Shown one piece after another: positions 75-53,252 of a stretch of 64,000 nt of DNA. The DNA is from Escherichia phage REP2: the sequence record OQ174501.1; one strand, given 5' to 3'. Made by a program: the position numbers and the translations under genes. The notes beneath the pieces were generated by a model. That model saw only the letters and a list, made by a program, of their open reading frames with translations. It was not told the origin of the DNA and made no database searches. The number at the start of each line of letters is the position of its first letter. Position 1 is the stretch's first letter.

Positions 75-548
75 ATGAAATCATATGCTCAATTTTTAAA
101 TGAAGCGGTGTTAAATGAAGCATCTAGCACTGAAATTCAAGCTGTTGCAAAAGCTGCCATTGCCGCGGGTAAATATTCCTATAAAGATGCTTCCGATGAA
201 TCACGATTCCAATTTGCTCGTGATATGAAAGCCGAAGGATTTACAGGGAATGCAGTTAGTATGGCTTGGAAAAGTTTAGTTGCTACTGGAGCTGCTTTTG
301 CAAAGGCTTCGGGTAAACCTGCTCCTAAAGCAGATCCTAAAGCTGCACAAGAAAAAAATATTGTTAAAGGAATTATCTCCAAATATGAAGCTATCCTTAA
401 AGAGCTTTTAGTAATCAAAACTGAAGGCCAAAAGCTAGCTCGTGCTTATAGTTTCAAAGATAACCCACATGCTCACTCTCTTGAGTATGTTGAAGACATC
501 CAAAAAATTATTAAAGACCGCATTTGGTCTGCTAAACAAATCAAATAA
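75..548 (+). CDS. Internal protein (Ip) with capsid-targeting N-terminus
   Basis: N-terminus MKSYAQFLNE|A resembles the T4 Ip capsid-targeting sequence with a gp21-type LxE cleavage site; 157 aa; Lys/Ala-rich. Confidence 0.65.
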   Translation: MKSYAQFLNEAVLNEASSTEIQAVAKAAIAAGKYSYKDASDESRFQFARDMKAEGFTGNAVSMAWKSLVATGAAFAKASGKPAPKADPKAAQEKNIVKGIISKYEAILKELLVIKTEGQKLARAYSFKDNPHAHSLEYVEDIQKIIKDRIWSAKQIK

Positions 549-4208: not shown

Positions 4209-4778
<570 letters not shown>

Positions 4779-5224: not shown

Positions 5225-5698
5225 ATGAAAACATATCAAGAATTTATCACTGAAGCAGCTATTAATTCTCAAATTATTGCTGAATCTTTTACCGATCTTT
5301 TGAAATTTAAAAAAGGTCAAAAAATCACTGCTGTATTGGATGATGGTACAGAAGTTGAGATGGATGTACAGGGATATAATTATGCAGTAGATGGAAAACT
5401 GTATAATAAATCTCATGCTAAATTTGATTCATTTGACGACTTTGTTAATACAGTTGAAGATGAAAAAACTCGTAGATCCATTGCAACTGGCGACGCTAAG
5501 GTTCTTATGGCACATGGCCATGAACGCATCCGCGCTAAACAGAATAAAATGGGCGAAGATAATTTTGCATTAGTTGGTTATCAATCTGGTAAACAAACTT
5601 ATGGCTATCAACGTACTGCTACCATGTATAATAAAAATGGTAAAATCGCTTTCGTGAATAGTAAAGGTTCTATTCAGTACGTTAAATCGTTCAAATAA
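5225..5698 (+). CDS. Internal protein (Ip) with capsid-targeting N-terminus
   Basis: MKTYQEFITE|A capsid-targeting sequence; 157 aa. Confidence 0.7.
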   Translation: MKTYQEFITEAAINSQIIAESFTDLLKFKKGQKITAVLDDGTEVEMDVQGYNYAVDGKLYNKSHAKFDSFDDFVNTVEDEKTRRSIATGDAKVLMAHGHERIRAKQNKMGEDNFALVGYQSGKQTYGYQRTATMYNKNGKIAFVNSKGSIQYVKSFK

Positions 5699-11055: not shown

Positions 11056-11063
11056 TATAAATA
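11056..11063 (+). promoter_or_regulatory. T4-type late promoter (TATAAATA)
   Basis: Exact TATAAATA upstream of the rI-region genes. Confidence 0.45.
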
Positions 11064-50299: not shown

Positions 50300-50593
50300 A
50301 TGAAAAAATTTATTTTTGCTACAATTTTTGCTTTAGCTTCTTGTGCTGCTCAGCCTGCTATGGCAGGTTATGATAAAGATTTGTGTGAATGGTCTATGAC
50401 TGCGGATCAGACTGAAGTTGAAACTCAAATTGAAGCAGATATTATGAATATCGTTGAGCGCGATCGCCCTGAAATGAAAGCTGAAGTGCAAAAACAGCTT
50501 AAGTCTGGCGGTATCATGCAGTACAATTATGTTTTGTATTGCGATAAAAACTTCAATAATAAAAATATCGTAACCGAAATCACAGGTGAATAA
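50300..50593 (+). CDS. sp: Spackle (periplasmic lysozyme inhibitor / superinfection exclusion)
   Basis: 97 aa with signal peptide MKKFIFATIFALASCAAQPAMA. Confidence 0.8.
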   Translation: MKKFIFATIFALASCAAQPAMAGYDKDLCEWSMTADQTEVETQIEADIMNIVERDRPEMKAEVQKQLKSGGIMQYNYVLYCDKNFNNKNIVTEITGE

Positions 50594-51230
50594 TATGATT
50601 TATTATATGCACAAAAATCCACCGTTTAAATACGGTAAATTTCCTGATGCACAATGTTATAATATAACGCCGAATGAAAATAATAACGGATATCATATTG
50701 GTGTAATTTTTGTAATTGTTAAAGATAACGAAATCGTTGCCTGGGCAGATTTTAAAGGTACAACATATGATGTTAATCCTGTGCCTTTCACATATTACAA
50801 TATAATGGATTTGGCATATGATTATAATTGGTTTAATCATGACGCGTTGGCTCATATTGAAGGTGTAGGATTTGACATCTCTTATTCTAGCTATTCATTA
50901 TGTCCTATGAGCCGAGCTCACGGTAAAGATGTATCATATCTTTCAATTCGGAAACGTGTAATCTTCAAACGTAGTACAGAGTATGTTGGCGGGCTCTTTG
51001 TTAAAGATAATAAAATAACCCGCATTAGTTATCCTTTAAGTGTAGATCAAAAAGATGTTGATGTTGATTTAGACTTAACTGAAAATAACATTAATCGTAT
51101 TGCTTCTGTGTATTTTGATATCGATGAAAAAATTGTAGTGTGTGGATACGAATTACCAGCAGAAAAACAGTCTAAAGTAAATGTTTCTATTGATGACCAA
51201 ATTTTTAATGCTTTTATGAATAGAGGTTAA
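50586..51230 (+). CDS. 61.2-position protein (AdfA-like anti-DarT candidate)
   Basis: 214 aa; position between sp and 61. Confidence 0.5.
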   Translation: MNNMIYYMHKNPPFKYGKFPDAQCYNITPNENNNGYHIGVIFVIVKDNEIVAWADFKGTTYDVNPVPFTYYNIMDLAYDYNWFNHDALAHIEGVGFDISYSSYSLCPMSRAHGKDVSYLSIRKRVIFKRSTEYVGGLFVKDNKITRISYPLSVDQKDVDVDLDLTENNINRIASVYFDIDEKIVVCGYELPAEKQSKVNVSIDDQIFNAFMNRG

Positions 51231-51231
51231 T

Positions 51232-51396
51232 ATGAAAACATATAAAGAATTTATTAAAGAAGATATGGTTGCTGGAGATTCAGGTGGTAATCTTGAAAAT
51301 ATCTCTACTGGAACAACATCAGGTGCTGTAGTAAATAAAGGTCCTGAACAAATTCCTAAAAAGAAAAAAGAGGAATCTAAAGAAAAAGAAGAGTAA
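51232..51396 (+). CDS. Small protein with Ip-like capsid-targeting N-terminus
   Basis: MKTYKEFIKE|D mirrors the Ip capsid-targeting sequence MKTYQEFITE|A; 54 aa; Lys/Glu-rich tail. Confidence 0.5.
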   Translation: MKTYKEFIKEDMVAGDSGGNLENISTGTTSGAVVNKGPEQIPKKKKEESKEKEE

Positions 51397-51398
51397 AA

Positions 51399-52427
51399 AT
51401 GTCATCAATACCTTGGATTGATAATGAGTTTGCATACCGTGCATTAGCTCATTTACCTAAATTCACACAAGTAAATAATAGTTCAACTTTTAAATTGCGG
51501 TTTAGATGCCCTGTTTGTGGAGATTCAAAAACCGACCAAAATAAAGCTCGTGGATGGTATTATGGTGATAATAATGAAGGAAATATTCATTGTTATAACT
51601 GTAACTATCATGCACCAATCGGAATATATTTAAAGGAGTTTGAACCCGATTTATATCGTGAGTATATCTTTGAAATAAGAAAAGAAAAAGGTAAAAGTCG
51701 TCCAGTAGAAAAACCTAAAGAACTTCCTAAACAACCTGAGAAGAAAATAATTAAATCTCTTCCGTCATGTGTTAGATTAGATAAACTGGCGGAAGACCAT
51801 CCAATTATAAAATACGTAAAAGCTCGTTGTATTCCAAAGGATAAATGGAAATATCTTTGGTTTACAACCGAATGGCCTAAATTAGTTAATAGCATAGCAC
51901 CAGGAACATACAAAAAGGAAATTTCTGAGCCTCGTCTTGTTATTCCAATTTATAATGCTAATGGAAAAGCTGAGTCTTTTCAAGGGCGTGCATTAAAGAA
52001 AGATGCTCCTCAAAAATATATCACCATTAAAGCTTATCCTGAGGCAACAAAAATATATGGAGTCGAACGAGTTAAAGATGGTGATGTATATGTTCTAGAA
52101 GGACCTATAGATTCACTTTTTATTGAAAATGGTATAGCTATTACGGGTGGTCAATTAGACCTAGAAGTTGTTCCATTTAAAGATAGACGAGTGTGGGTTT
52201 TAGATAATGAACCTCGTCACCCTGACACTATCAAGCGAATGACTAAATTAGTTGATGCAGGAGAAAGGGTTATGTTTTGGGATAAATCTCCCTGGAAATC
52301 AAAAGATGTCAATGATATGATTAGAAAGGAAGGTGCAACCCCTGAACAAATTATGGAATATATGAAAAATAATATTGCCCAGGGGTTGATGGCTAAAATG
52401 CGGCTATCTAAATATGCTAAGATTTAA
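51399..52427 (+). CDS. 61: DNA primase gp61
   Basis: 342 aa; zinc-binding CPVCGDS...CYNC, TOPRIM-type core. Confidence 0.93.
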   Translation: MSSIPWIDNEFAYRALAHLPKFTQVNNSSTFKLRFRCPVCGDSKTDQNKARGWYYGDNNEGNIHCYNCNYHAPIGIYLKEFEPDLYREYIFEIRKEKGKSRPVEKPKELPKQPEKKIIKSLPSCVRLDKLAEDHPIIKYVKARCIPKDKWKYLWFTTEWPKLVNSIAPGTYKKEISEPRLVIPIYNANGKAESFQGRALKKDAPQKYITIKAYPEATKIYGVERVKDGDVYVLEGPIDSLFIENGIAITGGQLDLEVVPFKDRRVWVLDNEPRHPDTIKRMTKLVDAGERVMFWDKSPWKSKDVNDMIRKEGATPEQIMEYMKNNIAQGLMAKMRLSKYAKI

Positions 52428-52624
52428 ATTAACCCAACTAAAGCAAATGCTAAATCTACAAATGTATCAAGAGTAACTACTGGAATATTAACACCATGCG
52501 CAATTGCAATTGGTGATAAAATAAAGTTCCAGAGTAAAATTCCTACCATAGCAGAAATAGTAAAAGCTATACGTTTCTTATTACCTTTGATGGCATTAAC
52601 AAGTGCCATTAATTTTTGTACCAT
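52424..52624 (-). CDS. Small membrane protein (66 aa)
   Basis: Minus-strand ORF with AGGAGG 5 nt upstream of its ATG; hydrophobic helices; convergent with gene 61. Confidence 0.5.
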   Translation of the reverse strand: MVQKLMALVNAIKGNKKRIAFTISAMVGILLWNFILSPIAIAHGVNIPVVTLDTFVDLAFALVGLI

Positions 52625-53244: not shown

Positions 53245-53252
53245 TATAAATA
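53245..53252 (+). promoter_or_regulatory. T4-type late promoter (TATAAATA)
   Basis: Exact TATAAATA about 30 nt upstream of soc. Confidence 0.6.

Follow-up and report, generated by a model that had tools for sequence, protein, structure and literature searches.

[quoted passage not shown] They carry a capsid-targeting sequence (CTS) of 10 to 19 residues (PMC9026906, PMC3012670), with the decapeptide pattern MKTY.EFI.E and a gp21-type cut after Glu10. For packaging, the N-terminal 10 residues of IPIII are sufficient, according to a review of Black's work (PMC9026906), which also relates the finding of Mullaney and Black that, within the CTS, targeting depends mainly on residues 4 and 7 and processing on residues 8 and 10. 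The cargo that follows the CTS is hypervariable and confined to certain lineages (PMC3012670); the mature internal proteins are basic and present in the virion.

Other proteins cut by gp21 include gp67 and gp68, small components of the T4 prohead core that are encoded in the late head-gene cluster and influence head shape, and the major capsid protein gp23. Residues 66-91 of mature gp23 (gp23*) form the N-fist, a 25-residue element that contacts four neighbouring subunits (PMC7136217). The N-terminal region of gp23 is inside the prohead before expansion, and the mutations A66D, A94V and G97S alter head length, which has been taken to imply contact with the scaffold (PMC9546572). In SPN3US-type giant phages, head and ejection proteins are preceded by propeptides of more than 100 residues (PMC5694885).

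The product of gene 61.1 shares features with each of these systems. Like the internal proteins, it is small, starts with the CTS decapeptide and a gp21-type site after Glu10, has a Lys cluster and is dispensable in the laboratory. Unlike them, it is encoded next to the primase gene rather than in the Ip loci, lacks a late promoter and has a conserved, capsid-like cargo; in addition, its mature form in the DNA analysed here would be acidic overall, and its packaging is predicted from sequence. Like gp67 and gp68 it is a small protein, its own prohead entry and cutting being predicted, and a mimic of the gp23 N terminus may, like them, influence head shape. However, those two are documented core components from a late cluster, whereas 61.1 is transcribed early, lies beside primase and has no documented structural role. 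As in gp23, a maturation site is followed by N-fist sequence and then, at the same place, by a basic pair or cluster, but each protein keeps its own stable signatures (GDHGY in gp23 versus GD[SA]GG in 61.1, and Q/N-I/V-GP versus NKGP) and 61.1 has neither the HK97-fold body nor the Pfam Gp23 match. Finally, long members of the 61.1 family, with an N-domain of about 100 residues and a conserved x-x-Glu site ahead of the peptide, are analogous to the long propeptides of SPN3US type, which the prohead protease removes. There is no sequence relationship between the two, packaging of the long form is a prediction, and most members of the N-domain family have other C termini and are encoded in early or nucleotide-metabolism regions, unlike the SPN3US-type propeptide genes.

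Gene 61.1 and its surroundings

We analysed a stretch of 64,000 nucleotides from Escherichia phage REP2 (OQ174501.1), referred to as the window. An initial annotation, made from the sequence, had drawn attention to an ORF for 54 residues at 51232-51396, outside the Ip loci, with a start resembling that of the internal proteins. The coordinates, the start (ATG at 51232), the stop (TAA at 51394-51396) and the translation (MKTYKEFIKEDMVAGDSGGNLENISTGTTSGAVVNKGPEQIPKKKKEESKEKEE) were confirmed. Its neighbours are 61.2 and the primase gene 61. As had been stated, it is outside the variable Ip loci (near e/denV or 57B). The relevant features of the window are as follows.

51232..51396, + strand: gene 61.1 allele, 54 codons plus TAA, matching WCA46080.1 and PHROG 1823
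51223..51226, + strand: Shine-Dalgarno GAGG read from the sequence, 5 nt before the 61.1 ATG and overlapping the end of gene 61.2
51232..51261, + strand: CTS-like leader, codons 1-10, MKTYKEFIKE, ending in an I-K-E gp21-type site and resembling the Ip leader at 5225
51262..51357, + strand: gp23-like core, codons 11-42, DMVAGDSGGNLENISTGTTSGAVVNKGPEQIP, paralogue by sequence of gp23 residues 66-97 (N-fist and start of the N-arm)
51358..51393, + strand: Lys cluster and acidic tail, codons 43-54, KKKKEESKEKEE, with an A6 run at 51364-51369 and a pN/pS of 0.55
51399..52427, + strand: gene 61 (DNA primase), starting 2 nt past the 61.1 stop; conserved downstream neighbour across Straboviridae
5225..5698, + strand: internal virion protein, annotated WCA46167.1, used as the CTS reference (MKTYQEFITE, then A after the cut)
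75..548, + strand: second Ip-like ORF (MKSYAQFLNE, then A after the cut), with a late-promoter motif TATAAATA at 31-38

The 54-residue product is 100% identical to WCA46080.1 of Escherichia phage REP3 (OQ174502.1, Tequatrovirus), and so is the DNA of the queried stretch, 50900-51700, to the REP3 record. The orthologue is annotated gp61.1 in the T2 record, and the short-form profile PHROG 1823 matched the product over positions 1-54 of 54 (E = 1.5e-32). The ORF is the conserved T4-family gene 61.1, a known annotated gene with no assigned function. It is tightly packed in its operon, since the stop codon of 61.2 occupies 51228-51230, the 61.1 ATG comes one base later and the ATG of gene 61 follows at 51399. 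The upstream genes in the window are 41, dmd, 61.4, sp and 61.2; downstream are 61, a small reverse-strand ORF, 56 and soc. The description of this region as an anti-defence island was borne out in part. The genes dmd and sp are indeed found upstream, but 61.1 is anchored beside primase throughout the family, and in Proteus phage PM2 the order is a bare 41 - 61.1 - 61.

Variation was observed around the gene. The size of gene 61.2 (50586-51230) differs among close relatives, with 211-214 aa in REP3 and 108 aa in T2. For many Tequatroviruses, the match to the 801-bp query is split in two and extends over about 1155 bp, indicating some 350 bp of extra sequence across the 61.2/61.1 stretch. On the - strand, between primase gene 61 and dCTPase gene 56, a hydrophobic ORF of 66 aa (52424-52624) occupies the position of the T4 dam methyltransferase gene; the window and REP3 thus have no dam at the 61-56 locus.

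The leader, the predicted cleavage site and the gp23-like core

The 61.1 leader and that of the Ip at 5225 share 8 of 10 residues and 27 of 33 nucleotides. We compared the latter with the starts of 345 ATG-initiated ORFs (30 aa or longer) from the two strands of the window. After 61.1, the closest was the Ip-like ORF at 75 (5 of 10), and the remaining ORFs reached 4 at most. The near-identity of MKTYKEFIKE to MKTYQEFITE noticed in the initial annotation, with its gp21-type cleavage context, therefore makes the leader an outlier among the 345 ORFs. Only three real ORFs in the window start with MK[TS][YF]..F. The leaders of the RB69 Ip cluster include MKTYQEFIAE, MKMYQEFIIE, MKTYAEFLTE and MKTYKEFIAE. 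The last, that of RB69p124, is identical to the 61.1 leader at 9 of 10 positions, and by this comparison the latter falls inside the normal range of CTS variation. The targeting determinants Y4 and F7 are the same in 61.1, the Ip at 5225 and RB69p124, and the processing site L/I-x-E at positions 8-10 is present as I8-K9-E10, so that all four CTS-critical residues (4, 7, 8 and 10) are conserved. Ip-like PHROG families gave weak N-terminal matches to 61.1, as expected because the matched stretch is so short. AF2 predicted a helix at leader residues 4-11 (pLDDT about 72). Identification of the leader as a CTS is thus supported at the sequence level. In the Krischvirus W115, the 61.1 leader is MIGFKQFVEENKLKE, and no other CTS-like ORF was found in the first 100 kb of its genome.

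Judged by its sequence, the segment that follows the predicted cut is a paralogue of the N terminus of the mature major capsid protein gp23*, a relationship that the initial annotation had missed. BLASTP against REP3 gp23 aligned residues 2-38 of 61.1 with gp23 residues 57-93 (16 of 37 identical, E = 1e-8). When the long-form family profile was run against 177,635 PDB sequences, only T4 gp23 was matched (E = 6e-6, gp23 residues 49-101), and with the single 54-residue sequence it was again the only hit below E = 0.01 (E = 0.0097). The mature gp23* chains in the PDB have 456 aa (521 minus 65). Because the alignment starts at residue 3 of gp23*, the Glu10-Asp11 bond of 61.1 is in register with the gp23 maturation site, Glu65-Ala66, where L-T-E65 is the counterpart of I-K-E10. 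The invariant columns of the 61.1 core that are common to gp23 are G, D, G, N, I, G, T/S, G and GP, and the invariant residues of the core are kept from the Vibrio, Acinetobacter and Proteus phages to those of Escherichia. After the cut, 61.1 has Asp, Glu or Ser, and Ala is found at the gp23 and Ip sites examined. The predicted gp21 site is very likely real, because it is in register with the gp23 maturation site and is conserved in 192 of 198 family members.

The likeness of the 54-residue product is confined to gp23 residues 49-101, and the HK97-fold capsid body is absent. A Pfam scan gave no match even at E values up to 10. Some database entries give this ORF the name 'major capsid (domain) protein' or 'head morphogenesis protein'. 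The 'major capsid' names stem from the partial gp23 likeness; 61.1 is not a capsid protein, and the automated name is misleading. In nine phages, the 61.1 core and the gp23 N-fist are identical at 13-17 of 28 residues, whether or not the gp23 is the cognate one; one divergent gut lineage reaches 20 of 28. Ongoing gene conversion, or mimicry that tracks the cognate gp23, was rejected for lack of a diagonal co-variation signal in these nine phages. The distinct and stable signatures of the two proteins, with no co-variation except in the one lineage, suggest old paralogy or a long-standing shared constraint rather than recent copying. A connection with Gol and Lit was also considered: the Gol peptide of gp23 is located immediately C-terminal of the stretch in common with 61.1, and where the two overlap by a few residues, these are not conserved.

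Cutting after Glu10 would leave a peptide of 44 residues (G6, S4, T3, K7, E7) with a mass of 4.6 kDa and a pI of 5.0, whose tail is KKKKEESKEKEE. Its earlier description as a Gly/Ser-rich peptide of about 44 aa with a Lys/Glu tail was thus roughly right. The predicted semi-tryptic peptide that starts at Asp11 is DMVAGDSGGN(P/L)ENISTGTTSGAVVNK. The Lys/Arg cluster aligns with R100-R101 of gp23 in the HMM alignment. The mature window peptide is acidic overall yet contains a K4 cluster, and T6-type and most other alleles carry basic tails. The T6-type alleles (P0002 and P0004), of 62 aa, fit an A-run one base shorter than the A6 at 51364-51369, which would convert the tail KKKKEESKEKEE to the basic KKKKRNLKKKKSKNVINTLD in a frame that reads into the start of gene 61. 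Since these alleles lose the acidic tail and keep the Lys cluster, the former looks dispensable or slippage-prone. AF2 gave no confident fold for the 61.1 peptide beyond the leader helix, in short or long forms, as expected if the peptide would become ordered only when bound.

Conservation and long forms of the 61.1 family

Relatives of 61.1 were found by tblastn in 1413 phage records, with hosts that include Escherichia, Klebsiella, Shigella, Acinetobacter, Aeromonas, Enterobacter, Vibrio and Proteus, among others. Over 14 distinct short-form alleles, pN/pS was 0.12 in core codons 11-42 (pS 0.60), 0.33 in the leader and 0.55 in the tail. The constraint on the core, the Shine-Dalgarno sequence and the packing between 61.2 and the primase gene show that 61.1 is a real gene under purifying selection. 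The initial annotation had made conservation in related phages a check on its proposal, and the gene is conserved there. In the phages examined, the family always adjoins primase, with the gene 41 helicase upstream and gene 61 downstream.

Outside the T-even group and its near relatives, a long form of 121-177 residues, commonly 154-166 (PHROG 2086), is encoded directly upstream of primase. It is found in Acinetobacter, Cronobacter, Vibrio KVP40-like, Proteus, Salmonella and other phages, and the KVP40-type and Acj9 records already name it gp61.1. A conserved helical N-domain of about 100 residues is followed by the C-terminal 61.1 motif and a Lys/Arg tail. The PHROG 2086 profile matched 61.1 (E = 6.4e-16) only through its C-terminal positions 109-154, and a profile search of the window for the N-domain returned 61.1 alone, by that C-terminal part, showing that the T-even form lost the N-domain and has a 10-residue CTS-like leader instead. 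Short leaders of other lineages are MKTFKDFINE, MKSFKEVMNE, MKTYKEFVKLNE, MTLLEKYKQSLSE, MIGFKQFVEENKLKE and MKQLVEE, the last with a probable TTG start.

A hydrophobic-x-Glu tripeptide is located 1-3 residues before the motif xGD in 192 of 198 distinct motif-bearing proteins, against a background of about 3% (0.03) per position. The hydrophobic residue is L in 126, I in 26, M in 25 and V in 11. This pattern matches the gp21 consensus, L/I-x-E (PMC12991175, PMC9026906). Thus, what is constant across the family is a protease site, an N-fist-like peptide and a basic patch.

An exhaustive profile search collected 1918 clusters at 50% identity, most of which share only the N-domain and have other C termini. 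The N-domain (e.g., L004 2165-2480; columns 1-100 of alignment A3) has invariant D, Y, R, W, H and R residues. Pfam holds no family for it, and a Foldseek search against viral models returned only uncharacterised relatives. Outside T4-like phages, its relatives are found on short contigs near ribonucleotide reductase and DUF7207 genes.

Two variants of the family were seen among the contigs. In five IMG/VR T4-like contigs of about 151 kb (L048 and L058-L061), a 61.1 homologue around 1480-1660 has no ATG and probably starts at a TTG, reading MKQLVEE/VVAGDAGG..., where the slash marks the predicted cut. L058 has an in-frame TAG at the position of a Gln codon of L048, which could reflect stop-codon recoding or a pseudogene. 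It is in this lineage that the 61.1 core comes unusually close to the N-fist of its cognate gp23 (20 of 28). The other variant, of 245-251 aa, occupies the 41-61.1-61 position in P0142, P0157, L057 (1210-1947) and L103 (6001-6756). It consists, in order, of the N-domain, the cleavable 61.1 peptide with its Lys tail, an internal second CTS-like element (e.g., DFKQFVESLE/AD) and a domain of about 100 residues, and looks like a fusion of 61.1 to an Ip-like cargo.

Expression and candidate functions of gp61.1

No consensus late promoter TATAAATA was found within 40 kb upstream of 61.1 on the + strand, the nearest + strand copies being at 11056-11063 and 53245-53252. The latter precedes soc. Further + strand copies precede the Ip-like ORF at 75 (31-38) and, at 4211 and 4224 (4211-4231), gene e followed by denV and the Ip at 5225. 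Late-promoter motifs are rarer in the window than by chance, with 6 versus about 11 expected. A one-mismatch motif, TATGAATA at 51215, was rejected, being too close to the 61.1 ATG to serve. The T4 61.1 RNA is classed as early, and the protein was not detected in a time-resolved whole-cell proteome; the ipI-III RNAs are also classed as early, with late accumulation of the proteins (PMC9697503 supplement). Early transcription of 61.1 thus does not exclude packaging. In a CRISPRi-ART screen, knock-down of T4 61.1 was scored 'Not Fit' (score -0.84, p 0.93), i.e., no measurable contribution to fitness in the laboratory (PMC11879866 supplement).

As for the virion, the name '61.1' does not occur in the main text, or in the supplementary files covered, of one T4 head mass-spectrometry paper. 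The cryo-EM papers on the T4 capsid describe no extra N-fist-like density. In the expanded capsid, the sole unassigned density is helical and lies under the gp24* P domains, and the authors of that structure suggest a possible leftover of gp24 or of a digested core protein (PMC9546572); no link between this gp24*-associated density and gp61.1 was established. In the literature searched, 'gp61.1' appears only in gene tables, the review of T4-relative genomes is silent on it, and no discussion was found of the leader, the gp23 paralogy or the family-wide protease site, the automated 'major capsid' names being the one trace of these features.

From the observed sequence relationships, conservation, synteny and purifying selection, we infer packaging, cleavage and a later role for gp61.1. 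The protein comprises a leader matching the T-even Ip CTS, a 32-residue gp23*-like core and a Lys-rich tail. It would be made early and persist until head assembly, when the leader, and possibly also the gp23-like segment, whose counterpart in gp23 sits inside the prohead beside the scaffold, would take it into the assembling prohead core. There, gp21 would cut after Glu10 and free a flexible 44-residue mimic of the gp23* N terminus. In phages with the long form, the helical N-domain of about 100 residues replaces the leader and would be the part removed. The released peptide might be retained on DNA by its Lys cluster, bind the shell as an N-fist does or escape through the capsomer pores. A flexible peptide of 4.6 kDa could leave by these 14-17 Å pores as other core fragments do (PMC9546572). 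Prohead entry and gp21 cleavage are suggested by two independent sequence arguments, a leader that follows the experimentally defined CTS rules and a body homologous to the core-shell segment of gp23 that gp21 cuts, with the cut sites in register. Against this account stand the missing late promoter, the failure to detect the protein in the T4 proteome, its lack of mention in the parts of the head mass-spectrometry paper covered, the capsid structures without extra N-fist-like density, possible escape by the pores, the neutral knock-down in the laboratory and the Asp, Glu or Ser after the cut. We hold this account of uptake, cleavage after Glu10 and release tentatively, at close to but somewhat below an even chance.

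The same leader and cleavage site were read in the initial annotation as those of an additional internal protein that enters the head by its CTS, is trimmed by gp21, stays with the DNA and is injected, whereupon its 44-residue peptide would counter host defence. The sequence-level CTS and the very likely gp21 site agree with this interpretation; the slow evolution, the primase synteny and the lack of a late promoter do not. The Lys cluster could hold the peptide on DNA, dmd and sp are nearby, 61.1 is dispensable in the laboratory like the Ip genes, and in the fused forms of P0142, P0157 and L057 the 61.1 peptide is followed by a second, Ip-like leader and a cargo domain. However, Ip cargo is hypervariable, whereas few small proteins of the family are as conserved as the 61.1 peptide (pN/pS 0.12), and its likeness is to the capsid protein of the phage itself, not to an effector. 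In addition, 61.1 is encoded away from the Ip loci and lacks a late promoter, the mature window peptide is acidic (pI 5.0), and 61.1 was not found in virions, as far as the T4 proteome and the portions of the T4 head mass-spectrometry paper referred to above go. We thus consider an injected defence-countering peptide unlikely. Because this is an old family that evolves slowly and resembles the capsid protein, a head-assembly or capsid-associated role seems more plausible than the injection of an effector against host defence. Activity in the cytoplasm would fit the early class of the T4 RNA and the location among early host-takeover genes: gp61.1 could be a decoy that soaks up free gp21 and so blunts host sensors tripped by the protease, or that occupies a capsid sensor as a gp23 mimic. 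A 2026 preprint reports that CBASS CD-NTases are activated when gp21 cuts their I/LxE loops (PMC12991175), which makes the idea topical. Moreover, family members have both the conserved protease site and a segment that copies the N terminus of the capsid protein. Nevertheless, a competing substrate would need to greatly outnumber the sensor, we know of no system that senses gp23 residues 57-101, and the decoy leaves unexplained why T-even alleles have a complete CTS-like leader and not just a cleavage site. It appears quite improbable.

The order 41 (helicase) - 61.1 - 61 (primase) across Straboviridae, bare in Proteus phage PM2, raises the question of an accessory role in replication, in which gp61.1 would work with the primosome and its gp23 and CTS likeness would be incidental. 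Early expression, the N-domain relatives near nucleotide-metabolism genes outside T4-like phages and the 61.1 stop 2 nt before the ATG of gene 61, suggestive of translational coupling, are in line with this role. Yet in the T-even form the N-domain has gone altogether and the gp23-like peptide is what is left, no known protein other than gp23 shows significant likeness, and knock-down caused no fitness defect. Location in the early cluster does not imply a replication function either, because gene 40, for a head-assembly chaperone, sits there too. A role as a primosome partner is slightly less probable still. That the ORF has no peptide function at all and is a spacer or coupling frame for gene 61, its leader being CTS-like by chance, might be supposed from its very short length, its abutment on gene 61 and the lack of a laboratory phenotype. 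The conservation data already contradict this supposition: the amino acid sequence is constrained (pN/pS 0.12 at pS 0.60), residues are invariant from Vibrio to Escherichia phages, and the leader is a clear statistical outlier. We regard it as barely credible.

Within the prohead account, a more specific possibility, and an unlikely one, is that gp61.1 is a free-standing copy of the gp23 N-fist that is delivered to the prohead by a detachable module, released by gp21 and acts on the shell. The module would be the 10-residue CTS in T-even phages and the N-domain of about 100 residues elsewhere. The peptide could fill N-fist sites that are empty beside gp24 vertices or the portal, or it could compete with gp23 N termini for scaffold contacts and thereby tune head size or expansion. 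If this were true, it would follow that the widespread N-domain (approximately 1900 clusters at 50% identity) serves generally, and hitherto unnoticed, to load proheads with cleavable cargo.

Few assembly pathways have been studied as thoroughly as that of the T4 head, yet gene 61.1 is still without an assigned function. What is new here is 61.1 as a candidate prohead-protease substrate that bears a CTS or propeptide and whose cargo is a conserved gp23 fragment, not a variable effector. The combination of leader, protease site and N-fist copy makes it a testable candidate component or regulator of the prohead. This reading also touches on newly reported defences in which the host detects the activity of the prohead protease. 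It further suggests that a peptide may be presented to that protease in interchangeable ways, by the 10-residue CTS, by the last part of the gp23 propeptide or by the much larger N-domain, and such modules are relevant to the engineering of T4 heads for cargo delivery.
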